NCBI GenBank assembly: GCA_903910005.1
Contig: CAIVXW010000040.1
Location: forward strand, 1 to 41,255
Source: an uncultured Methylococcaceae bacterium
Lineage (GTDB): Bacteria; Pseudomonadota; Gammaproteobacteria; Methylococcales; Methylococcaceae
Direction: 5' to 3'
DNA: 41,255 nucleotides
How positions within the stretch are numbered: position 1 is the stretch's first letter; each line of letters starts with the position of its first letter. Positions 11,081-32,055 of the stretch are shown here, piece after piece. The notes under the pieces were generated by a model. It saw only the letters and a program-made list of their open reading frames with translations, made no database searches and was not told the DNA's origin. A program made the position numbers and the translations under genes.

Positions 11081-12574
11081 ATGGCTGAACATATCCTGTT
11101 CCTGACCGGCAAACTGGCAGAAGCCCAGTTGCGCCGTACCCTGGAAGACATGGTTCCGTCCTTTCGCTACACCGTGCAGGTACTCGGTGTTTCGGTGGCG
11201 GCCCTGATGACGGCCGACATGATCCAGCGACGCCTGAAGGATACCCTGGGGGCCGACCGGATTGTGGTACCTGGCCGTTGCCGGGGCGATCTTGCCGCCC
11301 TCTCTCTGGCACTGGGTGTGCCGGTCGAACGCGGCCCGGAGGAACTGCATGATCTGCCCTGGTTTTTTGGCAAGCAACGCAAACAGGCCGATTTATCCCG
11401 CTACGACTTGCTGATTTTTGCCGAAATCGTCGAGGCTCCCCGCCTGAGCGTGGCAGGCATACGGGCCCGGGCGGCGGACTACCGGCGACGCGGAGCCGAT
11501 GTGATTGATCTCGGCTGTCTGCCGTCAACGCCTTTTCCGCATCTGGTGGAATCCATCCAGGCTCTCAAGGCCGATGGCTTCAGGGTCAGCGTCGATTCGC
11601 TGGAAGCGGATGACCTGCTGTGCGGCGGCGAAGCCGGTGCTGATTATCTGCTCAGTTTGCACGAGGAGACCCTCTGGGTTGCCGATCAGGTGGCGTCTAC
11701 CCCCATACTCATTCCGGCCCGACCGGGAGATATGGCATCCCTTGACCGGGCCATCGAACGTATGCAGGCACTGGGGCGGCCCTTTCTGGCGGATCCCGTG
11801 CTGGATCCGATTCATTTTGGTTTTACTGAATCACTGGTGCGTTACCACGCCCTCAGGCAGCGTCATCCCGGCATTGAACTGATGATGGGGGTGGGCAACC
11901 TGACTGAACTGACCCACGCCGATACGGCGGGCATCAATGCCCTGCTGCTTGGAATTTGTTCGGAACAGGGTATTCGCCACATTCTGGCAACCGAGGTCAG
12001 TCGCCACGCCCGCAACGCCGTGGGCGAAGCCAACCTGGCCCGACGCATCCTTTACGCCGCCCGTCAGATCGGAGCCTTGCCGCGTTATTTTGATGAAGGG
12101 CTGATGGCCCTGCACGAACGGGCTCCCTACCCCCTTGGCCGGGACGACATTGAACAACTTCACCGGGGCGTGCGTGATCCGAGTTACCGCATCCAGGTGA
12201 GCCCGGACGGTATTCATGTATTCAATCGTGACGGTTTTCACACGGTGACCGATCCGTTTGACGCATACCCGGCCCTGAAGGTTGAACACGACGCCGGTCA
12301 TGCCTTTTATCTGGGGGTGGAACTGGCCCGTGCCCAGATTGCCTGGCAACTCGGTAAACGCTACACCCAGGACGAATCACTCAACTGGGGTTGTCAGGTT
12401 GAGCGAACCGCTGCAGGTGCCGATCCGCATACCTACAAACCGGCGGGCACCACCCTCACTTCAGTGGCTCAAACTGGGCGAAGCACTGCCCCGCTCCCGC
12501 CGGAGACGACGAGTCATAATGCAGTGACAGCAGACGCAGATGGCCAAGGCGACCGTATTCCGGGCCCGGACTGA
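11081..12574 (+). CDS. Dihydropteroate-synthase-related (pterin-binding) protein with an N-terminal extra domain (TIGR00284/DUF6513-like architecture)
   Basis: RRGADVIDLGC and the surrounding segment resemble the DHPS pterin-binding barrel. The ~500-aa architecture is the one I associate with methanopterin-type pterin pathways. The C-terminal 40 aa are low-complexity and overlap the convergent gene. Confidence 0.65.
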   Translation: MAEHILFLTGKLAEAQLRRTLEDMVPSFRYTVQVLGVSVAALMTADMIQRRLKDTLGADRIVVPGRCRGDLAALSLALGVPVERGPEELHDLPWFFGKQRKQADLSRYDLLIFAEIVEAPRLSVAGIRARAADYRRRGADVIDLGCLPSTPFPHLVESIQALKADGFRVSVDSLEADDLLCGGEAGADYLLSLHEETLWVADQVASTPILIPARPGDMASLDRAIERMQALGRPFLADPVLDPIHFGFTESLVRYHALRQRHPGIELMMGVGNLTELTHADTAGINALLLGICSEQGIRHILATEVSRHARNAVGEANLARRILYAARQIGALPRYFDEGLMALHERAPYPLGRDDIEQLHRGVRDPSYRIQVSPDGIHVFNRDGFHTVTDPFDAYPALKVEHDAGHAFYLGVELARAQIAWQLGKRYTQDESLNWGCQVERTAAGADPHTYKPAGTTLTSVAQTGRSTAPLPPETTSHNAVTADADGQGDRIPGPD

Positions 12575-18852: not shown

Positions 18853-21800
18853 ATGAGTCGGAAAACCCGTAAAACCCGCCGTCAATCCCGTCTGCAATCC
18901 GGAATACCCGCCCAAACCGGGACGGTGTCTGACCGGCTCAACAAGGCACTCGATCTACACCGACAAGGCAATCTGGATGCGGCCTGTGCCCTGTACCATT
19001 CAATCCTGCAACAGGAACCGGAACATTTTGAGGCCTTGCAGTTACTGGGGGTATTGCGAATACGCCAGCAACGTTACACCGAAGCACTCGAATACCTGGA
19101 TCATGCCCTGTGCATTCGGGCGGATGTGATTGCGGTACACAATAACCGGGGCATCGCCTTGCACCGCCTCGGACGTCCGCAGGAATCCCTGGCCAGTTAC
19201 CAGCGGGTGTTGCAGGCGAATCCGGATTACGCTGAAGCCTGGTACAACCAGGGCATTGTCCAGCAGGAAACTGGCCAGTACCCGGAGGCTCTGGCCAGTT
19301 ACGAGCGGGCACTGGCCCTCAAGCCCGATTATTTCGAGGCACATGGCAACCGGGGCAATACCCTCAAGAGCCTGCACCGGCTGGAAGAAGCCCTGGGCAG
19401 TTATCAACGGGCACTGGCCATCCGCCCGGATTACGCGACGGCACTCTACAATTTAAGCGAAACCCTGGGTGACCTGGGACGCTTTGACGAATCGGTTGAA
19501 AACTACCACGCTGCCGTTCAACTGGCCCCGCATCCCGGTCACTACAGTAACTACCTGTTCATGCTGGCCTGTTATGCCGAACGGCAGACACCCGCCGCAT
19601 TGCTTGAGGCGGCCCGGAGTTGGGAGGGCGTTGCCCTGACCGCTGCCGAGCGTGCGGCGGCCCGACTGCGCCGTTTCAGTCCACCGCCGCGACAGGGGCG
19701 TCCACTCAGGGTTGGTATTGTTTCTGCCGAACTGGGGCAACACGCCGTCGCCTACTTCCTCATGTCCTGGCTGGGGCACCTGAATCCGGAACGAATCAGC
19801 CTGTACCTTTACCCCGTCCTCATGCGCAGCGAGGCCGCATCGCAGGTATTTCAATCCCTGGGTGCCCGCTGGCATCCACTGGATCGTCTCGATGATGCAT
19901 CTGCGGCTGAACAAATAAGAAGCGACGGCATCGACATCCTCATGGATGTGAGCGGTCACACCGCACACAACCGGTTGGGCCTGTTCGCCCACAGGGCTGC
20001 CCCGGTTCAGTGTCACTACATCGGCTTTTTTGCTACCACCGGCCTGACTGAAATGGATTACTTTCTGGCCGATGAGGTATTGGTGCCGTCTGCACTGGCG
20101 GATCAGTTCGTCGAAACGGTATGGCGACTACCTCGCCCCTGGCTGGCCTATGCACCGCTGGAAAATGCTCCGGAACCGGGCTGGCAAGCCCCGGATGATG
20201 GCACGGTGTGTCTGGGCAGTTTCAATAACCTGATAAAAGTACGGGAGGATTGCCTGGACTTATGGGCCCGGGTGATGCGAGCCCTGCCGGAAGCCTGGTT
20301 GCTGCTGAAGGATGGCAAGGCCACCGATGCCACCACCCGGCAGCGTATTTGCGACGGTCTTTCGCGGCGGGGCGTGGATGACCGCCGGGTGGCTTTCGCC
20401 GCACGAACCGCCTCCTGGCAGGAACATATGGCCCTGTACGATCAGGTGGACATTGCCCTGGATACCCTGCCGCTCAACAGTGGCACCACTGCCTTTGATG
20501 CCCTGTGGATGGGCGTTCCCCTGATAACCCTGGCGGGAAATACCCTGGCGGGACGGATGGGGGCCGCGATTGTCGCCGGTATGGGTCAGTCGGACTGGAT
20601 TGCCCGGGATTCAGATGACTACGTGGCCAAAGTGGTTGCCCTGGCGCGGGATTTATCGCTGCGAAAGAGGTTGAGACCGGGCCAGCGTGAACGGATGCGT
20701 GCAAGCCCCCTGTGTGACGGCGTGGGTCTGGCCCGAGTGCTGGAGGATGCGTTTGAAACCTGGTTTGACCGGTATGTCGGCTCGACATCCTCCCGTTTAC
20801 CGGTTGAGCATCGCCCGGCGGTCAGTGGCGGTACACCCGACGAAATCCTGCAACAGGCTCTGGATCTGCACCGACGCGGTCAGCTTGCCGAGGCCCAGGC
20901 CTGCTACGACACCCTGCTTGCACAGGATCCCCGGCATTTTGATGCCCTGCAGTTGGCAGGGGCTCTGGCCGCCCAGCAGGAACGCTGGCAACAGGCTCTG
21001 GAGTACGTGGATCACGCCCTGCTGATTCGTCAGGATCAGGCCGAGGTACATTACAACCGGGGCATCATTCTGCAAAACCTGCAACGGCCCGAAGCTGCCC
21101 TCGACAGCTATCGTCAGGCCTTGCGACTGGATCACGGCCATCTCGAAGCCCGCAACAACCTGGGGCTGATGCTGCAACGCCTGAATCGTCTTGATGAAGC
21201 TCTGGTTGCCTACGAAACCGTGCTGAGGATCAAACCCGATTATGCCGAGGTACATTGCAACAAGGGCAATGTACTGAAGGACATGCAGCGACTGGATGAA
21301 GCCCTGTCCTGCTACGAACAGGCGATTCGGTTCAGGCCGGATTACGCCCTGGCTCACTACAACATGGGTAACCTGTTCGCCGCCAGGGAGCGGGCGGATC
21401 AGGCCCTGATTCATTATGAATACGCGCTGCAACTGGGTTTTTGCCGTGCCGAGGTTTATTTCAACCGGGGTAATGCCCTCAAAAAGATGGGCTTGCTGCA
21501 GGAAGCCCTTGCCAGTTACGGGCAGGCGTTACGGCTTGATCCGGATTATGCGGAGGCCCATTACAACAGTGGCAATCTGCTGCGGGAAATCAGTCAGCCG
21601 GATGAAGGACTGGCCCACTACCGGCAGGCCATCAGCACCCGGCCCGATTTTGCCGATGTTTATGTCAATCGTGGCAACGCCTGCAAGGATATGGGACGTC
21701 TGGCCGAGGCGGAAGCCAGTTACCGTCAGGCAGTGTCCCTGTGCCCGCAGCACCCGGGGTATCGCAGCAATCTGCTGTTCCTGCTGGGCTATTGTCCGGA

Positions 21801-23016
21801 ACGGCAATCGGTGCAAGACTATCTGCAGGAGGCTCGAGCCTGGGAGCAAAGCGTGCTGACCGATGCCGAGCGGCAGGCAGTCGCTACACAGCGGTTTGAT
21901 CGCCCCGCCCGTATCGGGCGTCCACTGCGGGTCGGGGTGCTGTCGGCTGAATTGGGTCAACATGCCGTCGCCTATTTTCTCAACACCTGGATGGCTCACC
22001 TGAATCGTGACCGGGTTCAGTTGTTTCTTTATCCCGCCCGACAGATTGACGACCAACATGCCCAAAGCTTCAGGGCCATGGCGGATGCCGTGTGCCCGGT
22101 GGATGATCTGGATGACGCCGCCGCAGTAGCCCGTATCCGCTCGGATGCCCTGGATATCCTGATGGATACCAGCGGCCATACCGGCAGCAACCGGCTGGGT
22201 ATCATTGCCCGCCGGGCCGCCCCCATCCAGTGCCACTACATCGGCTATTTTGCCAGCACTGGCCTCAGCGAAATGGACTACTTTCTGGCCGATGAGGTAC
22301 TAATTCCGTCCGCGCTGGACGACCGGTTCGTGGAGCAGGTCTGGCGATTACCCCGCCCCTGGCTGGCCTATGGGCCGCTGGAACAGGCACCGCAAATTGA
22401 CTGGAAACCGGCTGCCGATGGCCGCATCTGTCTGGGCAGTTTCAATAATCTGGTCAAGGTACGGGAAAATTGCCTGGCGTTGTGGGCCCGGGTGATGCAG
22501 GCTCTGCCGGAAGCCTGGTTGCTGTTGAAGGACGGACGGGCCAGCGATGCCAGTACCCGGCGGCGCGTCACCGAGACACTGCAGCAGTGGGGGGTAACAC
22601 CGGATCGGGTGGTTTTTGCCGCACGCACGGCCGCCTGGCAGGAACACATGATGCTTTACAATCAGGTGGACATTGCCCTGGATACCCTGCCACTCAACAG
22701 TGGCACCACCGCCTTTGATGCCCTGTGGATGGGGGTTCCCCTGATAACCCTGGCAGGAGACCACATGGCCGGACGCATGGGGGCTGCCATCGTCACCGGT
22801 ATGGGACAACCCGACTGGGTTGCCACCACTGCCGACGACTACGTGGCCCGGGTAGTCGCCCTGGCGCGGGATATACCGACCCGAACCGCCCTGAGGGCCA
22901 ACCAGCGCGAACGGATGCGGGTCAGTCCGCTCTGCGATGGAGCCTACCTGGCCCGCACACTGGAAGACACGTTCGAGACCTGGTTTGATCGATGGAGCCT
23001 GTCCGGTACCGCCTGA
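18853..23016 (+). CDS. Tandem double-module TPR + GT41 (SPINDLY/O-GlcNAc-transferase-like) glycosyltransferase, 1387 aa
   Basis: TPR repeats (e.g. AEAWYNQGIVQQETGQYPEALASYERALALKPDY) are followed by a GT41-type catalytic region. Its motifs are RVGIVSAELGQHAVAYF, DILMDVSGHTAHNRL, CLGSFNNLIKV and DIALDTLPLNSGTTAFDALWMGVPLITLAG. The whole TPR+GT arrangement then repeats (RVGVLSAELGQHAVAYF ... DIALDTLPLNSGTTAFDALWMGVPLITLAG). AGGGGG RBS sits 8 nt upstream. Confidence 0.85.
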   Translation: MSRKTRKTRRQSRLQSGIPAQTGTVSDRLNKALDLHRQGNLDAACALYHSILQQEPEHFEALQLLGVLRIRQQRYTEALEYLDHALCIRADVIAVHNNRGIALHRLGRPQESLASYQRVLQANPDYAEAWYNQGIVQQETGQYPEALASYERALALKPDYFEAHGNRGNTLKSLHRLEEALGSYQRALAIRPDYATALYNLSETLGDLGRFDESVENYHAAVQLAPHPGHYSNYLFMLACYAERQTPAALLEAARSWEGVALTAAERAAARLRRFSPPPRQGRPLRVGIVSAELGQHAVAYFLMSWLGHLNPERISLYLYPVLMRSEAASQVFQSLGARWHPLDRLDDASAAEQIRSDGIDILMDVSGHTAHNRLGLFAHRAAPVQCHYIGFFATTGLTEMDYFLADEVLVPSALADQFVETVWRLPRPWLAYAPLENAPEPGWQAPDDGTVCLGSFNNLIKVREDCLDLWARVMRALPEAWLLLKDGKATDATTRQRICDGLSRRGVDDRRVAFAARTASWQEHMALYDQVDIALDTLPLNSGTTAFDALWMGVPLITLAGNTLAGRMGAAIVAGMGQSDWIARDSDDYVAKVVALARDLSLRKRLRPGQRERMRASPLCDGVGLARVLEDAFETWFDRYVGSTSSRLPVEHRPAVSGGTPDEILQQALDLHRRGQLAEAQACYDTLLAQDPRHFDALQLAGALAAQQERWQQALEYVDHALLIRQDQAEVHYNRGIILQNLQRPEAALDSYRQALRLDHGHLEARNNLGLMLQRLNRLDEALVAYETVLRIKPDYAEVHCNKGNVLKDMQRLDEALSCYEQAIRFRPDYALAHYNMGNLFAARERADQALIHYEYALQLGFCRAEVYFNRGNALKKMGLLQEALASYGQALRLDPDYAEAHYNSGNLLREISQPDEGLAHYRQAISTRPDFADVYVNRGNACKDMGRLAEAEASYRQAVSLCPQHPGYRSNLLFLLGYCPERQSVQDYLQEARAWEQSVLTDAERQAVATQRFDRPARIGRPLRVGVLSAELGQHAVAYFLNTWMAHLNRDRVQLFLYPARQIDDQHAQSFRAMADAVCPVDDLDDAAAVARIRSDALDILMDTSGHTGSNRLGIIARRAAPIQCHYIGYFASTGLSEMDYFLADEVLIPSALDDRFVEQVWRLPRPWLAYGPLEQAPQIDWKPAADGRICLGSFNNLVKVRENCLALWARVMQALPEAWLLLKDGRASDASTRRRVTETLQQWGVTPDRVVFAARTAAWQEHMMLYNQVDIALDTLPLNSGTTAFDALWMGVPLITLAGDHMAGRMGAAIVTGMGQPDWVATTADDYVARVVALARDIPTRTALRANQRERMRVSPLCDGAYLARTLEDTFETWFDRWSLSGTA
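19531..20775 (+). repeat. Internal duplication, copy 1: GT41-like catalytic module (aa 227-641)
   Basis: It aligns without net indel to 21751..22995 at a constant offset of 2220 nt. 20441..20534 versus 22661..22754 shows 3 mismatches in 94 nt. Confidence 0.85.
21751..22995 (+). repeat. Internal duplication, copy 2: GT41-like catalytic module (aa 967-1381)
   Basis: See copy 1. Both copies are 1245 nt, start at HPG(H/Y) and end at ETWFDR(Y/W). Confidence 0.85.
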
Positions 23017-23086
23017 GTCAATTCACCGATGCCGCAATGGTTGCGTCTGCAGCAATTTTTAACATAACCCAAGATAGCAGCAACGA

Positions 23087-24061
23087 ATGTCAATGAACGA
23101 TACTGCATATCTACAGGCACGAACCCTGTTTCAGGCCGGGCATTACCCGGCGGCAACCCTGATTTGTCAGCAGTATCCTGCTGACTTCAATCATTTGTAT
23201 TTGCTGGGGCTGATTCATGCCGAAACCTGCCAATACGACCAGGCCCTTGCCTGTCTGGAAGCCGCCCGGGTGCTTGATTCAAACCACCTCGGTCTGAAGG
23301 CGGACAGGGAGCGCGTCCTGAATGCGGTCAACCGGCAAAAACTGATGCTGGCTCTGGGGCTGCATCAGCACCATCGAGCGGTAGCTGCTGCATCGGTCTA
23401 TGATGAAATCCTGCAAACCGACCCGCAGCATTTTGATGCCCTGCAACTGCGGGGGGCTCTGGCCCTGCAGCGGGGCGACTATCGACAGGCTCTGAACGAT
23501 CTGAACCGGGCTGTCTCCATCCGTACCGATTATGCCGACGCCCACAGCAACCGGGGGATTGCCCTGCAGGAACTGGGACGTTTTGAAGAAGCCCTGGCAA
23601 GCTACGACCGTGCCCTGAGCCTGACCGCCGCCAATCCCCGGATTCACAACAACCGCGGTAACACCCTGAAGGAACTCAACCGTCTCGACGAGGCACTGGT
23701 GAGTTACGGTCATGCCCTGGCACTTGACCCGAATTATGCCGATGCCTGGAGCAACCAGGGCAGTACCCTGAACGCCCTGCAGCGCAGCGATGAGGCACTG
23801 CTCTGTTATGACCGGGCCCTGAGTCTTGATCCAACCCTGGCAGAAGCCTGGTTTAACCGGGGCAACATCCTCAGGGAGCGAAATCAACTGGAAGAGGCTC
23901 TGGCCTGTTATGACCGGGCTTTGACTCTCAAGCCGACATTTGCCCGGGTTTACAACAATCGGGGCATCGTTTTACAGGATTTGGGCTATCTGGGTGAAGC
24001 CCTGGCCAGTTATGAACGGGCTCTTGAACTGGATATGGCGGCTTCGGAGAAGTCGGCATGA
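23087..24061 (+). CDS. Stand-alone TPR-repeat protein (no catalytic domain)
   Basis: There are about 7 TPR units, and the segment DPQHFDALQLRGALALQRGDYRQALNDLNRAVSIRTDYADAHSNRGIALQELGRFEEALASYDRAL is closely related to both TPR arrays of the upstream GT. The stop overlaps the next start (ATGA at 24058-24061). Confidence 0.85.
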   Translation: MSMNDTAYLQARTLFQAGHYPAATLICQQYPADFNHLYLLGLIHAETCQYDQALACLEAARVLDSNHLGLKADRERVLNAVNRQKLMLALGLHQHHRAVAAASVYDEILQTDPQHFDALQLRGALALQRGDYRQALNDLNRAVSIRTDYADAHSNRGIALQELGRFEEALASYDRALSLTAANPRIHNNRGNTLKELNRLDEALVSYGHALALDPNYADAWSNQGSTLNALQRSDEALLCYDRALSLDPTLAEAWFNRGNILRERNQLEEALACYDRALTLKPTFARVYNNRGIVLQDLGYLGEALASYERALELDMAASEKSA

Positions 24062-25155
24062 TTCACACCGGCATACACCCCACCGCCGTCATTGATAACC
24101 AGGGCATTTGTGAAATGCCCGATACCACCATCATGGAAGCCGGGGCCATCATTTCGATCGGCTCACGCGGACGAATTCAGCTTGGTAACCGCAACATCCT
24201 CTACCCGCAAGTCAGCATTCGTATCGACCAGGGCTGGATGCTGACCGGCGATGAGGTTTCATTCGGCTCCGGCTGTCAGATTTACGAACCCCGGGCCGGT
24301 CTGGAGATTGGCCATCATTGCCTGATTGCCGGCAATGTCAGCATCTGTGGCGTCAAGCACGGGCGCATGGATCCGACCATCCCCATGCGGCAGCAGCCTG
24401 CGGAAAATCTGCCGATTCACATTGGCGATAATGTCTGGATCGGGATGGGAGTCATCATTCAGGCCGGTGTCCGTATTGGTTCAGGGGCGGTGATCGGGGC
24501 GGGTTCGGTGGTGACCCGGGATATACCGGAATGGGCCATTGCCTGGGGGACGCCCTGCCGGGTGCAGCGCATGCGCGGCAATGGCCACTTCATGGCGCAT
24601 CTGGAAGACGGCCCCCTGCGCCTGCATCTGGGGTGCGGTCCCCGTTTCATTCCGGGTTTTTTGCACGTGGATGCCCAGCCTCATCCCCATGTCGATCTGG
24701 TGGCGGATGTCGCCCGGCTGGAGATGATTCCCGACGCCAGTGTTGACCTGATCTATGCCTCTCATGTACTGGAACATTTTGGACGCTGGGAATTTCGCGG
24801 CGTCCTGACCGAATGGCGGCGTATTCTCAAACCCGGCGGCGTGCTGCGACTGGCCGTACCGGATTTTGCCGCCTGTGCCAAACTGTATTACGAGAACGGT
24901 CTGGCTGATGGTTTGAATGGCCTGATTGGCCTGGTTTGCGGCGGGCAGCGGGATGAGCATGATTTTCACCGCATGATTTTCGACGAACCCTTTCTCACCC
25001 ATGAGTTGGTGGGGCTTGGCTTTCGTCAGGTGCGCCGTTGGGACTGGCGAGACACCGAACACGCTGACATCGACGATTATTCCCAGTCATACCTGCCCCA
25101 TCTGGACAAGAACCGGGGAACCCTGATGAGCCTGAATCTGGAGGCACGCCGATGA
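24058..25155 (+). CDS. Fusion protein: N-terminal left-handed-beta-helix (hexapeptide) acyl/acetyltransferase + C-terminal class I SAM-dependent methyltransferase
   Basis: Hexapeptide-repeat region: IHIGDNVWIGMGVIIQAGVRIGSGAVIGAGSVVTRDIP. Methyltransferase region: LRLHLGCGPRFIPGFLHVD (motif I), DLIYASHVLEHF and ILKPGGVLRLAVPD. Confidence 0.75.
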   Translation: MIHTGIHPTAVIDNQGICEMPDTTIMEAGAIISIGSRGRIQLGNRNILYPQVSIRIDQGWMLTGDEVSFGSGCQIYEPRAGLEIGHHCLIAGNVSICGVKHGRMDPTIPMRQQPAENLPIHIGDNVWIGMGVIIQAGVRIGSGAVIGAGSVVTRDIPEWAIAWGTPCRVQRMRGNGHFMAHLEDGPLRLHLGCGPRFIPGFLHVDAQPHPHVDLVADVARLEMIPDASVDLIYASHVLEHFGRWEFRGVLTEWRRILKPGGVLRLAVPDFAACAKLYYENGLADGLNGLIGLVCGGQRDEHDFHRMIFDEPFLTHELVGLGFRQVRRWDWRDTEHADIDDYSQSYLPHLDKNRGTLMSLNLEARR

Positions 25156-25883
25156 GTGACGTCTGGGTTCCTTCGGATCGGCAGTATATGATTGACGATT
25201 TATGCCGCACCATCACCCGGGTCGCAGCCAACGAGGGCTGGTTTCAGCAATCCTGGCAGGGCGTGGATGTCTGGCAGTTGCCGGAAGATCTGGTACGGTT
25301 ACAGGGGGTGGTGCATACGATACGACCCCGCTGGATCATTGAAACCGGCACCAAATTCGGTGGCTCGGCGATTTTTTTTGCCTCACTGCTGGCGTTGAAT
25401 GGCGAGACGGCAGGCGGCGTTATCACGGTAGACCTTGACCTGAAACCGCAGGCTCTGGATTGTTTCAGGCATCATCCCCTGGGTACGCGGATTAAGGCCG
25501 CCCTGGCCGGTGATGCGGCAGCCCCGGATACCCTGGCACGTTGTGCCAGCCTGCTGGCCAGCGATCCCGGTTGCGTCATGGTGTTTCTGGATGACGACCA
25601 TAATGCCGATCATGTCGAGCGGGAATTACAGGCCTACGCCCCCCTGGTCACCCCTGGCAGTTATTTGATTGTGGCGGATACCAGTTTTGCCGAGCTGGCG
25701 GGTACGCCGGTCGGCCGGTCAACCCCCAAGTATCCGGATGTGGCACGCTCCAACCCAAAAGTCGCGCTGGAACGGTTTCTGGTTTCCCACGGCCACCAGT
25801 TCGAGCGGGTGGTGCCGCCCTGTCCCCACGGCCCCGGCAACTTTAAGGATGGTTTTTTGAGAAGGCGAACCGATGTATCCTGA
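25152..25883 (+). CDS. CmcI-family (cephalosporin-hydroxylase / rhamnosyl O-methyltransferase-like) methyltransferase
   Basis: FQQSWQGVDVWQLPEDLVRLQGVVHTIRPRWIIETGTKFGGSAIFFA and VFLDDDHNADHV fit the CmcI family (PF04989). The ATG overlaps the upstream stop (ATGA). Confidence 0.72.
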   Translation: MSDVWVPSDRQYMIDDLCRTITRVAANEGWFQQSWQGVDVWQLPEDLVRLQGVVHTIRPRWIIETGTKFGGSAIFFASLLALNGETAGGVITVDLDLKPQALDCFRHHPLGTRIKAALAGDAAAPDTLARCASLLASDPGCVMVFLDDDHNADHVERELQAYAPLVTPGSYLIVADTSFAELAGTPVGRSTPKYPDVARSNPKVALERFLVSHGHQFERVVPPCPHGPGNFKDGFLRRRTDVS

Positions 25884-26631
25884 AATGACGCATAAAACAC
25901 TGCGGATGCCGGACGGTTGCCGTCTGGGTTATGGCATCCGTGCAAACGGAGCGGATACGACCCTGATGCTGATCCACGGGGCTTTGTGTGATGCTACCTC
26001 GCTGCAGCATATCGCGCTGGCCGATGATGGTCAGCTTGACGTGCTGTTGCCGGATTTGCGCGGTCACGGCCAATCGACGGACGGAACGACCGAATGGACG
26101 CTGGAATTACTGGCCCGGGACATGCTCGCCCTCGTTGAAGCTGAGCAGGTTGGACGCTTGATTGTTGCGGGTGAGTCTTTTGGTGCCCTGGTAGCGGCCC
26201 GGATGGCGACCCTGAGACCTGACAGGATCAGCCTGCTGATTTGCTCTGAACCCCCCTTGTCGCCTGCCCGCCTTGCCCCCGTACGTCAGGCCATACTCTC
26301 TGCCATGCCATTCAATGCGTCGGCCCGGGGGCTGGCAGCCATTATGGGATATGCGCCGAGTAGCGATGCACACCAAAACGAGACCACGTTCCATGCCGTA
26401 CTGACCGGAACCACCGTGCCGTTAATTTTGCTGCACGGAACCGGTGGCAGCGGCAGCTTCGCCACTGTCGTGGATCAGGCCGACAGGATTCGGCTCTCCG
26501 GAGTGCCGTCCATCACGCTGCTGAAGGTCGAAGCAGCCGATCATCTGGTGTTGCGTGCCGTGGGTAGCAGCCTGGTGAGGGCACTGCTGGCAGAGCAGCG
26601 GGCTTCGTCGCCCATTCCGGGAGTGCGCTAA
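25873..26631 (+). CDS. Alpha/beta-fold hydrolase (possible esterase/deacylase)
   Basis: LMLIHGALCD (oxyanion-region HG), the nucleophile elbow GESFGA, and a late ADH that may be the catalytic His region. It overlaps the upstream gene by 11 nt. Confidence 0.68.
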   Translation: MYPEMTHKTLRMPDGCRLGYGIRANGADTTLMLIHGALCDATSLQHIALADDGQLDVLLPDLRGHGQSTDGTTEWTLELLARDMLALVEAEQVGRLIVAGESFGALVAARMATLRPDRISLLICSEPPLSPARLAPVRQAILSAMPFNASARGLAAIMGYAPSSDAHQNETTFHAVLTGTTVPLILLHGTGGSGSFATVVDQADRIRLSGVPSITLLKVEAADHLVLRAVGSSLVRALLAEQRASSPIPGVR

Positions 26632-26752: not shown

Positions 26753-28978
26753 ATGCCTTCCATAGTCAATACCAACATGCTGGCACTGACCACCCAGCGT
26801 CAGATGAACAAGGCCCAGGCCACTCAGCAAAATGCCATGACCCGTCTTTCCTCAGGGCTCCGTATCAACGGTGCCAAGGACGATGCAGCCGGCATGTCGA
26901 TCGCCAACCGCATGTCGTCACAGATTACCGGTCTCAATCAGGCTACCCGCAATGCCAACGATGGCATTTCGCTGACCCAAACGGCCGAAGGCGGACTGAG
27001 CGAGATCAATACCAACCTGCAGCGTATGCGCGAACTGGCCGTGCAGTCCGCCAACGCTTCCAATACCGCCTCTGACCGGGTCGCCCTGCAACAGGAAACC
27101 AAGCAGCTGCTGCAGGAAATTCAGCGGGTCGCGTCCACCACCGATTTCAACGGCATCAAGTTGCTGGACGGCAGTTTCCAGAACAAGGCGTTCCAGATTG
27201 GAGCCAATGCCGGTCAAACCACCAATATCAGTGTTGCCAGTGCGGCCATCAAGGATCTGGGTTCTTCCGCCAATTCGGCCATAACCAGTCGGGGTATGTC
27301 CACCAATAAATCGAATGCTGCCCTGAATGGGGCTGCCGGTACCAATGCGCCCGCCATGGCTTTGGGTGACGTCATAGTGAATGGTGTGAGCGTAGGGGCT
27401 TCCACGGCCGACAATGACACTACCTCTTTCTCACTGGGTGCGGCCAGTGCCATTGCCAAGGCAGCCGCTTTCAACAAGGTTTCCGCGCAAACCGGTGTCA
27501 CCGCCACGGTCAATGCCAATGAAGTGCAGGGGAAGGAGATGACTGCGGGTGGTTCCGGTAGTGGCAAAATTGTGATAAACGGGGTGGCGACTGATGACAT
27601 TACCCTCCAGGATGTTACCAGCGATTCGACCGGCATTGCCAACCGCACCAACATCATGAATGCCATCAATTCGATGACAGGACGAACCGGGGTAACGGCG
27701 GTCGACAGTGGCGATAACAAAACCGGTATTAAACTGGTAGCCGCCGACGGTCGCAACATTTCACTGGGAGTCACCGATGCAAGTCTCACTACGGCCAATA
27801 CTGGCTTGAATCTCAGCGGAACCGGAGTACTTGCCAGCACTAACGCGACTGATCTCGCAAATGCCAGTGATGCCGCTTACGGGGTCTTTACCGCATCAGT
27901 AACCCTGTCTTCCACCAAGGAAATGAAAATTGAGCAGGGAACCGGTGATGTCGGCAATGCCGGGCTGACCACAGGCACCTACCAGGCCCAGAAGGCCATG
28001 GTTATGACCAAGCAGATTGGTAATGGAGACGGCACGCTGAATGCGACCGAGGGCTTTACCTACGGTGATTTCAAGATCAACGGCATTTTGATTGGAACCT
28101 CGCTTGCTGCGGATGACAAATACACCCTGCCAGGTACCGCCAACCCTGAGGTCAGTGCCATTGCCAAGGCGGCAGCGGTCAACAAGTTGTCCAGCCTGAC
28201 CGGCGTCTCGGCAACGGCCAATACCACCCTGGTCAAGGGGGCGACCATGGACAACAACTCGCAAAGTGGCCAGATCGTCATCAACGGCATGGAAACATCC
28301 GTGATTACCACCACTTCCAACACCACTGCTGCCAACCAGGCCGAAACCCGGCAGCGGGTGGTCGCTGCCATCAATGCCATCAGCGGTAAAACCGGGGTCA
28401 AGGCCATTGACACCAATGATGCTGCTTCGGGGATTCGGCTTGAGGCTGCCGATGGTCGCAACATCACGGTTGATCTTGGTGCAGGAACCACGAATCCTGG
28501 TGCTGGTACCGGAGCCAGTTTTGGTCTTCGCGAAGGCACTTACTCCGGTTCCATTTCGTTGTCCTCGACCAAGGCTTTCAGTATAGAACGCGGAACCACC
28601 AACAGGGATACCAATGCAACCCTCGGTCTGGCAGTTGGTACCTACGGGGCCGGTCGAACCGGTCAATCGCTGGAGTCGATCGATATTTCCAGCCAGGAAG
28701 GAGCCGTGGCCGCCATTGAGGCCATAGACAACGCGATCAACGCAGTGGATGAAAGCCGGGTGAATATGGGATCCTACCAAAACCGCTTTACCTCGACGGT
28801 TTCGGCCCTGCAGTCCACGTCAGCCAATCTGACCGCAGCCCGCAGCCGGATTCAGGATGCCGACTTTGCGGCAGAATCGGCTGAAATGAGCAAGGCCGGT
28901 ATTCTGCAGCAGGCAGGTACCGCCATGCTGGCACAGGCCAATGCGTCCAGTCAGGGGGTATTGTCACTGCTCAGATAA
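26753..28978 (+). CDS. fliC: Flagellin (741 aa, enlarged variable region with four Flagellin_IN motifs)
   Basis: Conserved N-terminal D0/D1: VNTNMLALTTQRQMNK...LSSGLRINGAKDDAAGMSIANRM...ATRNANDGISLTQTAEGGL. Conserved C-terminus: GSYQNRFTSTVSALQSTSANLTAARSRIQDADFAAESAEMSKAGILQQAGTAMLAQANASSQGVLSLLR. Confidence 0.96.
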   Translation: MPSIVNTNMLALTTQRQMNKAQATQQNAMTRLSSGLRINGAKDDAAGMSIANRMSSQITGLNQATRNANDGISLTQTAEGGLSEINTNLQRMRELAVQSANASNTASDRVALQQETKQLLQEIQRVASTTDFNGIKLLDGSFQNKAFQIGANAGQTTNISVASAAIKDLGSSANSAITSRGMSTNKSNAALNGAAGTNAPAMALGDVIVNGVSVGASTADNDTTSFSLGAASAIAKAAAFNKVSAQTGVTATVNANEVQGKEMTAGGSGSGKIVINGVATDDITLQDVTSDSTGIANRTNIMNAINSMTGRTGVTAVDSGDNKTGIKLVAADGRNISLGVTDASLTTANTGLNLSGTGVLASTNATDLANASDAAYGVFTASVTLSSTKEMKIEQGTGDVGNAGLTTGTYQAQKAMVMTKQIGNGDGTLNATEGFTYGDFKINGILIGTSLAADDKYTLPGTANPEVSAIAKAAAVNKLSSLTGVSATANTTLVKGATMDNNSQSGQIVINGMETSVITTTSNTTAANQAETRQRVVAAINAISGKTGVKAIDTNDAASGIRLEAADGRNITVDLGAGTTNPGAGTGASFGLREGTYSGSISLSSTKAFSIERGTTNRDTNATLGLAVGTYGAGRTGQSLESIDISSQEGAVAAIEAIDNAINAVDESRVNMGSYQNRFTSTVSALQSTSANLTAARSRIQDADFAAESAEMSKAGILQQAGTAMLAQANASSQGVLSLLR
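27362..27988 (+). repeat. Flagellin surface module A (aa 204-412): two xINGxxx 'Flagellin hook IN' motifs
   Basis: LGDVIVNGVSVG...SAIAKAAAFNKVSAQTGVTAT...KIVINGVATD...NIMNAINSMTGRTGVTAVD...GIKLVAADGRNISLG...VTLSSTKEMKIEQGT...GLTTGTYQA. Confidence 0.8.
28061..28651 (+). repeat. Flagellin surface module B (aa 437-633): a diverged tandem copy of module A
   Basis: YGDFKINGILIG...SAIAKAAAVNKLSSLTGVSAT...QIVINGMETS...RVVAAINAISGKTGVKAID...GIRLEAADGRNITVD...ISLSSTKAFSIERGT...GLAVGTYGA. Confidence 0.8.
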
Positions 28979-30021: not shown

Positions 30022-32055
30022 ATGGTTTCAATTACCTCAAGCGGGCTGGGTTCCGGCATGGATATCAACGGCCTGGTCACCAAACTGGTGGAAGCTGAAA
30101 AAGCCCCGGCCGTCACCCGGCTTGATAAAGCCGAGGCGAAAATACAGGCCAGGATTTCCGCCTACGGTTCATTCAAAAGTGCCCTGTCTGCGGTCAGGGA
30201 CAGTTTGGCGGTGTTGGGTAAGGCTCAGACCTTTCAGAAAGTCAGCGCAACTTCCAGTGACAACACGGTACTGACGGCTACTGCAGGTATCAATGCCGAT
30301 GCCGGCAAGTACCGAATGGAGGTGCAACGACTGGCCCAAAACCATGCCTTGTCCAGTAAAAGCCATGATTCTGCCAGCGCGGTGGTGGGTTCAGGAACCC
30401 TGACCATCAAATTCGGCACAACCCAGTACGACGCGGGTACTGATACTTATGCGGGGTTCACCCAGAATCCTGACAAGGGTACCCTGACCCTCACCATTGA
30501 CGATTCAAACAACACCCTGACCGGGATTCGTGATGCCATCAACAAATCGGCAGCGGGTGTCACGGCGTCCATCGTTTATAATGGCAGCGGCCATCAACTG
30601 GTGTTGAACAGCACTGATAGCGGTGCCAAAAACAGCCTGCAAATAGCGGTAACAGACACTTCTGATGGCAACAATACCGATAACCTGGGCTTGTCGGCAC
30701 TGGCGTTCAACCAGACGGCGACCCACCTGACCCAGAATCAGGTAGCTCAGGATGCCCAGTTGTCGATTAACGGACTGGCTGTGAACAGCAGCACCAATAC
30801 CATCACGGACGCCCTGAAGGGCGTTACGCTTAACTTGCAGCAGGCCCAGGTGGGTAAATTCGTTTCACTGGATGTCAGTTATGCGGATACCGACGTCAAA
30901 ACTGCCGTCAGTACTTTTGTGGACAAATTCAATGAACTGGCCCGGAACGTCAGCACCGCAGCCACCTATGATCCCCAAACCCGAACCGCCGGCATTTTGC
31001 TGGGAGAGTCTACCGTCATCAATACCATGTCGCGCCTCAGGGCTGAACTGGGTAAAACTGTGACGGGGTTGACCGGGACGACCCGCAGTCTGGCCGACAT
31101 CGGAATCACCACTCAGAAAGACGGTACCCTGAGTTTCGACAGTGCCAAACTGAGTAAGGCGTATGCCACAGATCGTACCGCTGTTGCCGCCTTGTTTGCC
31201 GTAACCGGGCGACCGAGCGACAGTTCAAACCTGTATGTCAGCAGCACACGGGACACGCTGGCAGGCCAGTATGGCGTAGAGGTCACCCAGTCAGCCAGCC
31301 AGGGATTGTTGAGTGGTTCAAGCGTAGTCGGCGGTGTTTTTCCCCTGGCGGTGAGTGAACCCAACAACAGCCTGAAAATCAAGGTGAACGGTGTGCAGTC
31401 CGGCAGCATCACCTTGACGCCGACAAGTTATGCGTCGGGGAGCGAACTGGCTGCTGAATTACAGACCCGCATCAATGGCGACAGCACACTCAGATTGAGT
31501 GGAACTGCCGTCAAGGTAAGTTTCAGTAACGACCAGTTCCAGATTCAGTCCAATTCATATGGCGCATCGTCCCAGGTCGAAATCACCGGGATCAATGCCC
31601 AGTTGTCTGCTTCCCTGGGGTTGGCAACCGGTGTCGGTGTTGCCGGTCATAATGTGACAGGGACGATTAACGGCGAAGTGGCCGAGGGGGACGGTCAGGT
31701 TCTGACCGCCATTAGCGGTTCTGCCAAGGGGTTGAGCCTGCTGATGGAGGGGTCGCGAACCGGTACACGCGGAACCGTCGACTTTACCCGTGGCATCATG
31801 GAACAAATAAACAGCGTCTTGTCCGCTGCACTGGACAACAACGGTATGCTGGCGGTTCGTACCAAGGGTTTAAGCACATCCATCACCGACATTACCCGCC
31901 AGCGTACCGATTTATCAACCCGCATGGAAACCTACCAGCGGCAGTTGTACATCCGATTCAACGCAATGGATTCCATGATGGGCAAGTTACAGGCGACCAG
32001 TACCTACCTGACCCAGCAAATCACTGCCCTTAATGCCGCCAACAAGCAAAATTAG
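30022..32055 (+). CDS. fliD: Flagellar filament capping protein FliD
   Basis: N-terminus ITSSGLGSGMDINGLVTKLVEAEKAP...RISAYGSFKSAL and C-terminus RFNAMDSMMGKLQATSTYLTQQI. Confidence 0.93.
   Translation: MVSITSSGLGSGMDINGLVTKLVEAEKAPAVTRLDKAEAKIQARISAYGSFKSALSAVRDSLAVLGKAQTFQKVSATSSDNTVLTATAGINADAGKYRMEVQRLAQNHALSSKSHDSASAVVGSGTLTIKFGTTQYDAGTDTYAGFTQNPDKGTLTLTIDDSNNTLTGIRDAINKSAAGVTASIVYNGSGHQLVLNSTDSGAKNSLQIAVTDTSDGNNTDNLGLSALAFNQTATHLTQNQVAQDAQLSINGLAVNSSTNTITDALKGVTLNLQQAQVGKFVSLDVSYADTDVKTAVSTFVDKFNELARNVSTAATYDPQTRTAGILLGESTVINTMSRLRAELGKTVTGLTGTTRSLADIGITTQKDGTLSFDSAKLSKAYATDRTAVAALFAVTGRPSDSSNLYVSSTRDTLAGQYGVEVTQSASQGLLSGSSVVGGVFPLAVSEPNNSLKIKVNGVQSGSITLTPTSYASGSELAAELQTRINGDSTLRLSGTAVKVSFSNDQFQIQSNSYGASSQVEITGINAQLSASLGLATGVGVAGHNVTGTINGEVAEGDGQVLTAISGSAKGLSLLMEGSRTGTRGTVDFTRGIMEQINSVLSAALDNNGMLAVRTKGLSTSITDITRQRTDLSTRMETYQRQLYIRFNAMDSMMGKLQATSTYLTQQITALNAANKQN

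Follow-up and report, generated by a model that had tools for sequence, protein, structure and literature searches.

Two SPINDLY-Like GT41 Modules on One Polypeptide: A Putative Flagellin Glycosyltransferase of an Uncultured Methylococcaceae Bacterium

Introduction

The window analyzed here, a 41,255-nucleotide stretch from an uncultured Methylococcaceae bacterium (contig CAIVXW010000040.1), contains a flagellar locus with a gene whose single reading frame encodes two units, each combining a tetratricopeptide repeat (TPR) array with a GT41 catalytic domain (Table 1). This raises the question of whether the fusion is real, whether both heads could be functional, and what might divide them. We hold with high confidence that the two units stem from one old duplication and have been fused since, with both domains intact and under selection, a short disordered linker, and identical donor residues. 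The account as a whole, which comprises a two-headed O-glycosyltransferase, its history, a shared donor, an acceptor split, sugar tailoring, and gene conversion, is put forward with moderate confidence. Its step in which the same donor serves different acceptor sites on flagellin is tentative, and we would not quite call it probable.

Table 1. Features of the two-headed GT41 gene and its flagellar neighborhood, in window coordinates.
Feature	Coordinates	Strand	Remarks
Two-headed GT41 gene	18853..23016	+	Single ORF, 1387 aa
TPR array 1	18925..19530	+	~aa 25-226, ~6 repeats; Pfam TPR matches
GT41 catalytic module 1	19531..20793	+	aa 227-647; PDB phmmer, residue mapping, AF2
Near-identical core, copy 1	20441..20534	+	Encodes DIALDTLPLNSGTTAFDALWMGVPLITLAG, C-lobe donor-phosphate/ribose loop
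Inter-module linker	20785..20826	+	aa 645-658; sole segment with pLDDT <50
TPR array 2	20794..21750	+	aa 648-966, 9 repeats; 18 helices in model
GT41 catalytic module 2	21751..23013	+	aa 967-1387; PDB phmmer, residue mapping, AF2
Near-identical core, copy 2	22661..22754	+	3 mismatches to copy 1; probable short conversion tract
TPR-only protein, 324 aa	23087..24061	+	Paralogue of the enzyme's TPR arrays
Sugar-type hexapeptide O-acetyltransferase + SAM methyltransferase fusion	24058..25155	+	
CmcI / rhamnosyl O-methyltransferase family protein	25152..25883	+	Overlapping start
Alpha/beta hydrolase	25873..26631	+	
Flagellin, 741 aa	26753..28978	+	Presumed substrate; central region 23% Ser+Thr
FliD filament cap	30022..32055	+	Flagellar late-gene context marker

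One Reading Frame with Two Complete Modules

The ORF has no internal stop and is preceded by an SD-like AGGGGG 6-11 nt 5′ of its ATG. Its product begins with a basic, non-hydrophobic tail (aa 1-24) in which no signal peptide was found, followed in order by TPR array 1, GT41 module 1, the linker, TPR array 2, and GT41 module 2. Pfam Glyco_transf_41 (PF13844) matches the protein at 2.6e-86 and 290.5 bits (cut-off, 25 bits) in four stretches that amount to two complete catalytic domains, with many TPR matches besides. The first-pass annotation's description of one ORF holding two full TPR+GT41 modules is thus borne out by Pfam, as it is by alignment and by AF2 prediction.

Residues 227-641 pair with 967-1381 in an ungapped alignment shifted by 740 aa (2220 nt), and 279 of 415 positions are identical (67.2%), in agreement with the earlier estimate of collinearity without indels and about two-thirds identity. 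The catalytic parts share 69.6% of their nucleotides (76, 78, and 55% at codon positions 1, 2, and 3), and an independent direct-repeat search recovered three families at 2220-nt spacing (D4, D5, and D8). Compared end to end by BLASTP, module 1 (aa 1-647) and module 2 (aa 648-1387) are 52% identical, with a score of 683 bits (E = 0) that places the resemblance far above chance. The whole-module alignment requires three gaps, each 34-35 residues long and together spanning 104 positions, and module 2 therefore has three TPRs more. The exact 2220-nt period that had been claimed holds for the catalytic parts but not for the full modules, and the array was correctly described as shorter in module 1 and longer in module 2. 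Asn-ladder motifs (xxNxGxxx) occur in the arrays, which are 47% identical by BLASTP with three one-repeat gaps. Judged from sequence, these arrays of six and nine repeats are the main contrast between the two heads.

An assembly artifact was rejected, since the same 1387-aa frame recurs in at least seven independent assemblies (NCBI, ENA, Logan) and the syntenic orthologues (P0004, in three assemblies; P0003; L018) are two-headed too. Furthermore, at 70% nucleotide identity the copies are too unlike for an assembler to collapse or chimerise. The linker of about 14 residues is not conserved among orthologues, and no in-frame ATG was found within it. Tandem separate genes as well as fused genes occur among the relatives, so that fused and split arrangements seem interchangeable; where the annotation had offered fusion of paralogues or internal duplication, duplication of the whole TPR+GT41 unit is supported.

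Family Assignment and Predicted Structure

In phmmer searches of the PDB, module 1 matched SPINDLY (SPY) at 4e-64 and TtOGT at 9e-61, and module 2 matched them at 4.6e-60 and 1.1e-54. The AF2 model (mean pLDDT 90.9, mostly >90 in the catalytic modules) contains a pair of GT-B domains as well as a 9-TPR array, the latter with capping and connector helices besides its repeat helices. Foldseek returned SPY at 1e-46 and TtOGT at a TM of 0.88. Two confident SPY/TtOGT-like units are thereby predicted; the pTM is only 0.57, so their relative placement is not reliable. These comparisons place the protein in CAZy family GT41, with the SPINDLY/bacterial-OGT enzymes that lack the metazoan intervening domain.

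Catalytic and Donor-Binding Residues

Every known catalytic and donor residue is kept in both heads. Module 1 has H297, N458, K462 (nt 20236-20238), H525, the gatekeeper L541 (nt 20473-20475), T545/T546, and D549, which correspond to H1037, N1198, K1202 (nt 22456-22458), H1265, L1281 (nt 22693-22695), T1285/T1286, and D1289 in module 2. None of the H, N, K, H, TT, and D residues varies among the six orthologous modules, in which 196 positions are invariant, and the essential Lys position is K or R in all 231 family modules. Synonymous and non-synonymous changes relative to a 99% identical strain number 24/5 and 9/5 in the two heads, and both are judged to be under purifying selection. The two catalytic copies are apparently complete and active; a pseudo-enzyme head was rejected on the intact key residues, the purifying selection, and the confident fold of each.

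All mapped donor-contact residues are identical between the heads, as they are in both orthologues, and only 12 module-specific differences are fixed, mostly conservative ones. The earlier suggestion that the heads place two different sugars is disfavored here by these identities and by the shared Leu gatekeeper. Identical contacts do not prove identical donors, since second-shell differences exist (V366/T1106, H380/R1120, F392/Y1132, T451/R1191). TtOGT and XcOGT have a Tyr gatekeeper, and hOGT has a Cys; because the residue is Leu here, we infer a donor that is neither clearly GDP-fucose nor clearly UDP-GlcNAc. In both heads, Asp occupies the ribose-binding position (hOGT D925), whereas hOGT His920 is replaced by Gly. 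Likewise, the fucose-selecting Tyr744 and Ser496 of SPINDLY are replaced by Leu and Ala, so GDP-fucose specificity is not to be assumed.

The Near-Identical Core

The 94-nt core, which begins at codon position 2 and is equivalent to SPY Y744-T749 and hOGT C917-D925, differs between its copies at exactly the three positions first reported and encodes the reported peptide. Purifying selection or gene conversion had been offered as the cause. Purifying selection is supported because the peptide is invariant in six of six orthologous modules. Conversion is also probable, as the core comparison counts 4 differences for this pair against 10-18 for every other module pairing. Of 32 codons, 27 are identical where the background fraction is 0.53 (P = 2e-4), and the binomial P for the near-identity is 1e-3 to 0.02, for a signal that was picked post hoc. 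Core codon identity is raised in the cross-species pairs q1-o1 and q2-o1 too (22/31), and a locally low synonymous rate therefore accounts for part of the signal. A short conversion event probably homogenised the core DNA in this lineage.

Age and History of the Duplication

The bootstrapped tree recovers a clade of first modules (99%) and a clade of second modules (99.5%), which join at 87% with the one-module relative P0118 outside; informative sites number 70 for orthology and 45 and 34 for the alternatives. As reconstructed from these data, the unit was duplicated a single time, in the ancestor shared by the window, P0003, and P0004 lineages, after the split from the one-module relative. 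Among other relatives, duplication of modules is recurrent and recent, with many multi-module proteins arising from independent duplications: the three heads of P0002 lie ~0.15-0.16 apart (Kimura-corrected distance), and for 74 of 195 modules the nearest neighbor is in the same protein.

The Flagellar Island

The TPR-only protein encoded next to the enzyme is a "headless" third unit, with 46% identity to array 2 and 39% to array 1, and is kept in orthologous loci at 55% identity. The acetyltransferase/methyltransferase fusion gene begins with a 4-nt overlap of the preceding stop, and a 75% identical fusion occurs in L012. The CmcI-type gene recurs beside relatives of the two-headed gene, and in P0118 the one-module GT41 enzyme carries an alpha/beta hydrolase as a C-terminal fusion, which makes a Rosetta-stone link. 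The series of ATGA start/stop overlaps that runs from the TPR-only gene through the hydrolase is suggestive of translational coupling in one operon, which would end 121 nt 5′ of the flagellin gene. No nucleotide-sugar synthesis genes were found in the island.

Flagellin adjoins the enzyme gene in five of five nearest-clade loci with enough flank, as well as in P0010 and Dechloromonas, and nearest-clade synteny with flagellin, FlaG, FliD, FliS, and FliT is kept for one-, two-, and three-module enzymes. It is this gene context that points to flagellin as the substrate, and from which a sugar and its acceptor residues are deduced. The flagellin itself contains a surface-module duplication (aa 192-397, nt 27326-27943, versus aa 424-615, nt 28022-28597; 46% identity). 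That this duplication might match the two heads was raised by the annotation; the correspondence is seen in two lineages and fails in L040 and in Dechloromonas, where four heads stand alongside a 242-aa flagellin without a surface domain.

Proposed Roles of the Two Heads

We propose that the enzyme would be a protein O-glycosyltransferase that acts in the cytoplasm, carries two heads on a single chain, and belongs to a flagellin-glycosylation island. Both heads would draw on one nucleotide sugar, or on two that closely resemble each other, and their different TPR superhelices, each with an Asn ladder, would steer them to different sites on unexported flagellin. Different acceptor sites are suggested because the arrays have diverged, in parallel to acceptor choice in known systems: the TPR domain of FlmG binds flagellin (PMC7591256), and Maf-1 and Maf-2 use one donor on different serines via different binding domains (bioRxiv 10.1101/2023.12.03.569772). 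The "two site classes" of the first-pass annotation would fit such diverged arrays. Orthologues keep array 2 at nine repeats, and the array is collinear with TPR2 of P0004 and P0003. Between P0003 and P0004 the arrays are 65-68% identical module by module versus 42-45% across, while those of the query and its orthologues reach 46-49%, barely above the 42-49% across modules, so that specialization is suggested mainly by repeat number. The presumably co-transcribed acetyltransferase/methyltransferase fusion, CmcI-type methyltransferase, and hydrolase would tailor the attached sugar. In the core donor-phosphate loop, selection would hold the protein identical, and conversion probably evened out the DNA.

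A chemical division of labor, in which one head initiates on Ser/Thr and the other extends, or the two use different nucleotide sugars, would yield either two types of glycan or a disaccharide. GT41 enzymes are capable of initiation as well as extension, as with the N-linked glucose and then glucose-glucose of HMW1C in the work cited in PMC9715652, and unlike gatekeepers (e.g., Tyr plus Cys) occur among the heads of 24 of 82 multi-module relatives, for which the idea of two different sugars may hold. In the present protein, V366/T1106 beside SPY E567-T572 and F392/Y1132 beside SPY G593 are module-specific and near active-site loops. However, the identity of donor contacts and gatekeepers here and in both orthologues, and the few, conservative fixed differences, make such a division unlikely.

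We assign a similarly low probability to redundancy, with both heads doing the same job at the same sites and fusion raising local concentration or avidity, or forming a covalent counterpart of the SPY/OGT homodimer. The identical donor sites, the dimeric state of SPY and hOGT (PMC9715652), the recurrent recent duplications, and the apparent interchangeability of fused and split forms are all compatible with it. On the other hand, the duplication is old, and both copies with their six and nine repeats are kept in several lineages, whereas pure redundancy would seldom last so long; the disordered linker and low pTM also predict no rigid pseudo-dimer.

Both heads might instead modify other cytoplasmic proteins, their flagellar location being incidental. 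Among 28 long loci from wider relatives, only 8 have a flagellin-like gene within 10 kb; P0024 and P0005 are located in clusters of polysaccharide-like or glycosyltransferase character, and in Dechloromonas four heads are paired with the short flagellin described above. This is nevertheless distinctly improbable given the flagellar synteny of every nearest-clade locus, the putative operon that stops just before the flagellin gene, and the GT41 genes documented in flagellin glycosylation islands (PMC4875605). Finally, one dead scaffold head, or an ORF that wrongly joins two genes, is highly improbable, as no positive evidence for either was found and the residues, selection, predicted folds, and recurring frame described above all speak against them.

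Relation to Known Systems and Wider Occurrence

The best sequence and fold match of each head is Arabidopsis SPINDLY, a GT41 protein O-fucosyltransferase (7Y4I, 8DTF), with which the heads share an N-terminal TPR superhelix with its Asn ladder and a GT-B domain that lacks the intervening domain. His495, the essential Lys (K665), and the TT phosphate loop are common to both as well. Unlike the present protein, SPINDLY has one catalytic domain per chain, forms a homodimer, and is a eukaryotic nucleocytoplasmic regulator outside any flagellar locus. TtOGT (5DJS), XcOGT (2JLB), and human OGT have the same family and fold as each head but all have a single head; neither TtOGT nor XcOGT has a known substrate (PMC9715652). 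FlmG of Caulobacter and Maf-1/Maf-2 of Shewanella resemble the proposed enzyme in joining a binding domain to a separate catalytic domain and in cytoplasmic transfer before export. They differ in being separate single-headed proteins with nonulosonic acid donors, and in their catalytic domains: that of FlmG is GT-B but not assigned to GT41 in PMC7591256, and that of Maf is the GT-A-like MAF_flag10.

In enterobacterial flagellin glycosylation islands, SPINDLY-type GT41 genes lie beside flagellin and are associated with acetyl- and methyltransferase functions (De Maayer and Cowan, 2016; PMC4875605). Those GT41 proteins are described as single enzymes, often fused to a methyltransferase, and no tandem catalytic modules are reported in these islands (PMC4875605).

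The rarity of the architecture implied by the annotation proved wrong, as multi-head GT41 proteins are common in environmental bacteria. Public databases hold multi-module TPR-GT41 proteins with 2-6 units per polypeptide across many clusters, among them Dechloromonas denitrificans (CP075185, P0119), and many lie beside flagellin/FliD/FliS, where CmcI and hexapeptide-transferase partners accompany some of them. Such proteins carry only annotations of the kind "tetratricopeptide repeat protein" or "SPINDLY family." A literature search found no paper describing a multi-headed GT41 architecture; the layout is widespread in environmental bacteria.

Two Complete TPR-GT41 Modules in One Open Reading Frame

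The enzyme is encoded by 1387 codons of open frame without interruption, within which the first module (m1) spans aa 1-647 and the second (m2) aa 648-1387. A Pfam search matches the protein to PF13844 (Glyco_transf_41) at 2.6e-86 (290.5 bits; cut-off 25). The match falls into four stretches, which make up two complete catalytic domains, and many TPR models are matched as well. Arabidopsis SPINDLY (SPY) is the best match of each catalytic part (4e-64 for m1 and 4.6e-60 for m2, over SPY 479-844), followed by the Thermobaculum OGT homologue TtOGT (9e-61 and 1e-54, respectively) and then by Drosophila OGT (DmOGT), human OGT (hOGT), and Xanthomonas XcOGT. By homology, each module separately belongs to CAZy family GT41 (PF13844).

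The catalytic parts, aa 227-641 and aa 967-1381, align without gaps when shifted by 740 aa (2220 nt), with 279 of 415 residues (67.2%) and 69.6% of nucleotides identical. Identity at codon positions 1, 2, and 3 is 76, 78, and 55%, as expected for two coding copies under purifying selection. A separate repeat search of the window returned three direct-repeat families at 2220-nt spacing. In a BLASTP comparison, the first 647 aa align with the last 740 aa end to end (683 bits, E = 0, 52% identity), interrupted in the TPR region by three gaps, each 34-35 residues long and together 104 positions. This indicates that the whole unit of TPR array and catalytic domain is repeated, and that m2 has three TPRs more than m1. 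The exact 2220-nt period described in the first-pass annotation therefore holds for the catalytic parts and fails for the full modules.

An AlphaFold2 model covering aa 188-1387, built from 40 two-module homologues, has a mean pLDDT of 90.9 and features two GT-B domains with alternating beta-alpha lobes and, between them, 18 TPR helices (9 repeats). In the model the GT-B fold is preceded by a TPR superhelix, the arrangement that marks GT41, and the two catalytic lobes for which a structure prediction had been proposed are predicted. The sole disordered stretch is residues 458-471 of the model, corresponding to aa 645-658 of the protein at the module junction, and with a pTM of 0.57 the mutual orientation of the heads is not fixed by the model. 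Foldseek matches it to SPY (1e-46) and to TtOGT (TM 0.88, rmsd 3.2 Å). Two complete TPR-GT41 modules in one ORF are thus borne out by the reading frame, Pfam, the self-alignment, and the predicted structure. Since the N-terminus is basic and lacks a hydrophobic segment in the sequence, the enzyme should be cytoplasmic.

Age and Origin of the Duplication

The exact length of 1387 aa is shared by at least seven members of the cluster, whose assemblies come from NCBI, ENA, and Logan (contigs of 9-44 kb) and one of which is the 99%-identical strain L007. A syntenic orthologue, P0004 (1308 aa, 59% identity), is two-headed in three assemblies, and P0003 (1264 aa, partial) and locus L018, from two further lineages, have two heads too. 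An assembler could not have collapsed or chimerised halves that are 70% identical in nucleotides. An assembly artefact, or two separate genes read as one, is refuted at the level of sequence by the recurrence of the same ORF and by the fused orthologues, and the reality of the gene, left for checking by the first-pass annotation, can be accepted.

Module by module, m1 is nearest to m1 of P0003 (73%) and P0004 (69%), and m2 is nearest to m2 of P0003 (69%) and P0004 (70.5%), while m1 and m2 of the enzyme are 66.5% identical. A bootstrapped neighbor-joining tree groups the three m1 (99%), the three m2 (99.5%), and all six together (87%), to the exclusion of the one-module relative P0118 and of P0002 (three-module), P0009, and P0010 (two-module); the modules of the latter three cluster within each protein. 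This points to a single duplication in the common ancestor of the three lineages and to independent duplications elsewhere, so that by this tree the duplication is old and happened once. A recent internal duplication is ruled out, as modules group by position across species. Concerted evolution of whole modules is likewise ruled out by four-taxon informative sites, with 70 for orthology against 45 and 34 for the two alternatives; suspicion falls on a tract of some 90 nt alone.

Both split and fused forms, which the first-pass annotation proposed to look for, are found among relatives. At locus L013, five separate genes of one module each stand in tandem next to FlgK, FlgL, FliW, and CsrA, and fused relatives have 2, 3, or 4 modules in one ORF. 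The presence of both layouts fits an origin through fusion of tandem paralogues. The inter-module linker is short and unconserved, and no in-frame ATG is seen in its DNA, so an internal start for separate expression of m2 is not evident.

The Near-Identical Core

The two copies of the 94-nt core differ by 3 mismatches, confirming the count first reported. All six orthologous modules share its peptide, QVDIALDTxPLNSGTTAFDALWMGVPLITLAG, without variation, and by alignment the peptide corresponds to the C-lobe loop that holds the donor phosphates and ribose (SPY Y744-T749 and E752; hOGT C917-D925; PMC9715652). Function therefore explains the identity at the protein level. Over 96 nt of the core, the two copies of the enzyme differ at 4 sites, against 10-18 for the 14 other pairings of the six modules. 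Identical residues are encoded by identical codons in 27 of 32 cases, compared to a background of 0.53 elsewhere (P = 2e-4); a binomial test on this region, picked post hoc, gives P values that range from 1e-3 to 0.02 with the rate taken as expected. Informative sites within the core, again chosen post hoc, run 5:1:1 against 45:70:34 overall. The cross-species pairs q1-o1 and q2-o1 also have raised core codon identity (22/31), which indicates that a locally low synonymous rate contributes to the similarity. The local tree conflict is what a short gene-conversion tract in the lineage of the enzyme would produce, and such a tract is suspected. Of the two explanations offered in the first-pass annotation, purifying selection is thus supported by the invariant peptide, and gene conversion may have acted on the DNA as well.

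Donor Site and Catalytic Residues

Mutagenesis of SPY has identified H495, S496, N661, K665, H728, Y744, and T748 as important residues (PMC9715652). Mapped onto m1 and m2 of the enzyme, P0003, and P0004, these positions hold His, Ala, Asn, Lys, His, Leu, and Thr-Thr in all six modules of the three species, and an Asp occupies the position of hOGT D925. The essential phosphate-binding Lys (SPY K665, hOGT K842) is K462/K1202, the active-site His (SPY H495, hOGT H498) is H297/H1037, and the phosphate loop is T545-T546/T1285-T1286, all kept in both orthologues. Across the six modules, 196 of about 421 positions are invariant, and only 12 positions show fixed differences between m1 and m2, mostly conservative (E/D, V/I, K/R, F/Y) and at none of the mapped donor contacts. 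Relative to the 99%-identical strain, synonymous and non-synonymous codon changes number 24 and 5 in catalytic domain 1 and 9 and 5 in catalytic domain 2. A pseudo-enzyme head is ruled out by the key residues and these counts; the scenario in which one module has lost its nucleotide-sugar-binding residues does not apply, and, judged by these codon changes and residues, neither head is decaying.

In GT41, donor size has been proposed to be governed by a gatekeeper residue; SPY, TtOGT, and XcOGT have a Tyr there, and OGT has a Cys (PMC9715652). Both heads of the enzyme have Leu (L541, L1281). In SPY, the gatekeeper Tyr (Y744) excludes GlcNAc and is needed for fucose transfer, along with Ser496 (PMC9715652); the enzyme has Leu541/Leu1281 and Ala298/Ala1038 at these positions. 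It also departs from hOGT and DmOGT, with Leu for the gatekeeper Cys C917 and Gly for His920, and lacks the intervening domain between the lobes, as alignments to both enzymes break into two stretches around a gap. The gatekeeper and neighboring residues rule out a SPY-type O-fucosyltransferase or a true OGT, and the enzyme is therefore not to be filed as a fucosyltransferase or a GlcNAc transferase.

The first-pass annotation had raised the possibility that two heads place two different sugars. For this enzyme the idea is not borne out, as the gatekeeper and mapped donor contacts are identical, and the donor sites of both heads look the same by alignment. Gatekeepers vary across the family (Y 64, H 59, F 45, C 19, L 18, V 13, M 12), and heads with unlike gatekeepers, such as Tyr plus Cys, occur in 24 of 82 multi-module proteins. 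The proposal of two sugars may therefore hold for some relatives.

A Conserved Flagellin Island

The window gene order is GT41x2, TPR, AcT-MT, CmcI, hydrolase, flagellin, and FliD. Between the TPR-only gene and the hydrolase, each start codon overlaps the stop codon before it.

Features of the enzyme gene, its flagellin island, and one further ORF of the window
Feature	Position	Strand	Remarks
DUF6513-domain ORF	11081-12574	+	Family presumably linked to methanopterin-type C1 metabolism
Two-headed GT41 enzyme	18853-23016	+	m1 and m2
Core, m1 copy	20441-20534
Core, m2 copy	22661-22754
TPR-only ORF	23087-24061	+	Paralogue of enzyme arrays: 46% (array 2), 39% (array 1); Asn ladder; kept in orthologous loci
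Sugar-type hexapeptide O-acetyltransferase fused to SAM methyltransferase			Downstream of TPR-only gene
CmcI/rhamnosyl-O-methyltransferase family protein			Downstream of acetyltransferase-methyltransferase fusion
Alpha/beta hydrolase	25873-26631		Separate gene
Flagellin			741 aa; 121 nt past hydrolase gene
Flagellin surface module, copy 1	27326-27943		aa 192-397
Flagellin surface module, copy 2	28022-28597		aa 424-615
Stretch directly past flagellin stop codon	28979-29404	+	141 codons, in flagellin frame
FliD			Follows flagellin

The TPR-only protein may be a "headless" third module that serves as an adaptor or chaperone for flagellin. A PDB sequence search with the CmcI-like protein gave no match, and nucleotide-sugar synthesis genes were not found near the island in the window. 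Upstream of the flagellin gene there is no match to a sigma-28 promoter pattern, and promoter and terminator scans returned hits at chance level. In strain L007, a 79-nt insertion (5554-5632, between window positions 23085 and 23086) lies just upstream of the TPR-only start; it holds two small palindromes, GTGACGCAGCGCGTCAC and CCCTGAAGGGCAGGG, that resemble a REP or MITE element, and the window has no copy of it.

Adjacency to flagellin and late flagellar genes is seen in the window and also at the loci of P0004 (L004), P0118 (L012), and P0002 (L015), and at L018. The same cassette accompanies the one-module P0118. A similar set accompanies the two-module P0010, with CmcI, hexapeptide transferase, and methyltransferase as separate genes and no hydrolase, and both cassettes sit beside flagellin, FliD, and FliS. 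P0118 itself (L012 2737-5994; 52% identity) has an alpha/beta hydrolase, 47% identical to that of the window, fused at its GT41 C-terminus. By this Rosetta-stone link, the hydrolase is implied to work with the glycosyltransferase. The complete genome of Dechloromonas denitrificans features two adjacent two-module genes by flagellin, FlaG, FliD, FliS, and FliT. A contig scan also returned a 68%-identical fragment of the enzyme in a Methylococcaceae MAG, one of only three loci found, the other two being uninformative. PurH places the window near Methylococcales, with named relatives such as Methylomagnum closest at about 69% identity, and the DUF6513-domain ORF would agree with this placement. 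A non-flagellin target is an unlikely rival to a role on flagellin. A flagellin-like gene lies within 10 kb in 8 of 28 non-redundant long loci of relatives, and in 5 of 5 nearest-clade loci with enough flank.

TPR Arrays and Proposed Mechanism

By its sequence, the enzyme can be described as a real, old, two-headed GT41 with predicted intact and equivalent donor sites, different TPR arrays, and a place in a conserved flagellin island. The heads differ mainly in their arrays, of about 6 repeats in m1 and 9 in m2, with 47% identity between them. All three lineages keep array 2 at 9 repeats, and the arrays of P0003 and P0004 are 65-68% identical module by module, against 42-45% across modules. 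Both arrays have the Asn ladder motif, which contacts the substrate backbone in OGT and SPY (PMC9715652).

Each TPR superhelix would guide a separate part of the flagellin, before export, to the active site of its own head, thereby placing the same sugar on two site classes, and the neighboring acetyl- and methyltransferases would then tailor that sugar. This proposal draws on two precedents. The TPR domain of FlmG is necessary and sufficient to bind flagellin (PMC7591256), and in Shewanella, Maf-1 and Maf-2 share a donor and modify different serines via different binding modules (bioRxiv 10.1101/2023.12.03.569772). In those known systems the binding module picks the flagellin or its serines; in the enzyme described here, the TPR arrays would do likewise. 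Two rivals compete with this division of one sugar between two site classes. One head could initiate and the other extend, or the heads could use different donors; unlike gatekeepers are seen among relatives, and the two Leu gatekeepers here are alike. Plain redundancy, or a covalent pseudo-dimer, is the other, set beside the few fixed catalytic differences on one side and the divergent, lineage-conserved arrays on the other.

Head Number and Flagellin Duplication

The first-pass annotation had wondered whether a duplicated flagellin beside a duplicated enzyme was a coincidence. The two surface-module copies of the flagellin are 46% identical, with an alignment score of 311 against 78 ± 11 for shuffles; the repeat was found by local alignment with this shuffle control and missed by BLASTP self-comparison. 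The flagellin of the two-module orthologue at L004 has the same duplication, its copies pairing by position at 66-68%, and the 588-aa flagellin of the one-module relative has none. Beside the three-module P0002 at L015, an 881-aa flagellin carries two copies of the same surface module that are 57% identical to each other, compared to 48-53% to either window copy. This suggests that the module was duplicated independently, in a lineage that multiplied its heads independently too. At L040, a one-module enzyme accompanies a duplicated flagellin, and in Dechloromonas four heads accompany a 242-aa flagellin. A rule by which heads equal surface-module copies is thus not general across the 68 metagenome loci and other loci tested, and the association, present in two lineages, remains a lead.

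A more ambitious reading is that chains of 2-6 GT41 heads are modular protein-glycosylation assembly lines, in which each TPR array addresses a different flagellin site or surface domain, some relatives use a different sugar per head, and in this clade head number co-evolved with flagellin module copies, one head per copy. Two lineages that independently multiplied heads and apparently the flagellin module, together with the unduplicated flagellin of the one-module relative, speak for it. L040 and Dechloromonas speak against it, and the reading is considered improbable.

Past the flagellin gene, the 141-codon stretch closes with a repeat of the flagellin C-terminus (FAAESAEMGKADILQRADAAMLAQANASTRRVLSLLR), which has 91% nucleotide identity to the last 114 nt of the gene and follows a low-complexity segment rich in Lys, Glu, and Asp. 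The stretch resembles what would be left of a partial tandem duplication at the flagellin 3′ end, or of a second flagellin gene. The orthologous locus L004 has no counterpart, the gap between flagellin and FlaG being just 183 nt.

Prevalence and Significance

With two complete units in an uninterrupted ORF that is reproducible across assemblies, the enzyme is a multi-module TPR-GT41 protein (at least two such units), and the rarity first implied for this layout was overstated. Among the best 120 matches to the whole protein, 54 are two-module, 30 three-module, and 1 four-module. When a single module served as query in an exhaustive search, 38,066 representative clusters (18,429 at E ≤ 1e-30) were matched; multi-module proteins make up nearly all of the best 150, and the highest number of matched stretches is six, in a protein of 3732 aa. 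The nearest neighbor lies in the same protein for 74 of 195 modules, which indicates that duplication is recurrent. Some genomes encode several multi-module proteins back to back (L011 10001-26732; L009 8001-16540; P0266), with 3 + 2 + more modules in L011 and 2 + 2 in Dechloromonas. Full-text literature searches found no paper describing tandem GT41 modules. The GT41 genes of Enterobacteriaceae flagellin islands are catalogued as single enzymes (PMC4875605). The two-headed enzyme here is an example of one architectural variant, widespread and unstudied, of a known enzyme kind.

What the analysis yields for the window by itself is chiefly an accurate annotation, of one real gene with two predicted-active heads that go back to an old duplication, in a putative flagellin glycosylation island of a Methylococcales-like bacterium. 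Site choice on flagellin by cytoplasmic O-glycosyltransferases is still poorly understood, and two heads with a common donor site and their own TPR arrays offer a ready-made means of telling acceptor choice apart from donor choice among OGT/SPINDLY enzymes. Multi-head GT41 proteins as a class, which reach six heads per chain and in some cases have unlike gatekeepers, are abundant in environmental bacteria and unstudied, and could aid glyco-engineering.
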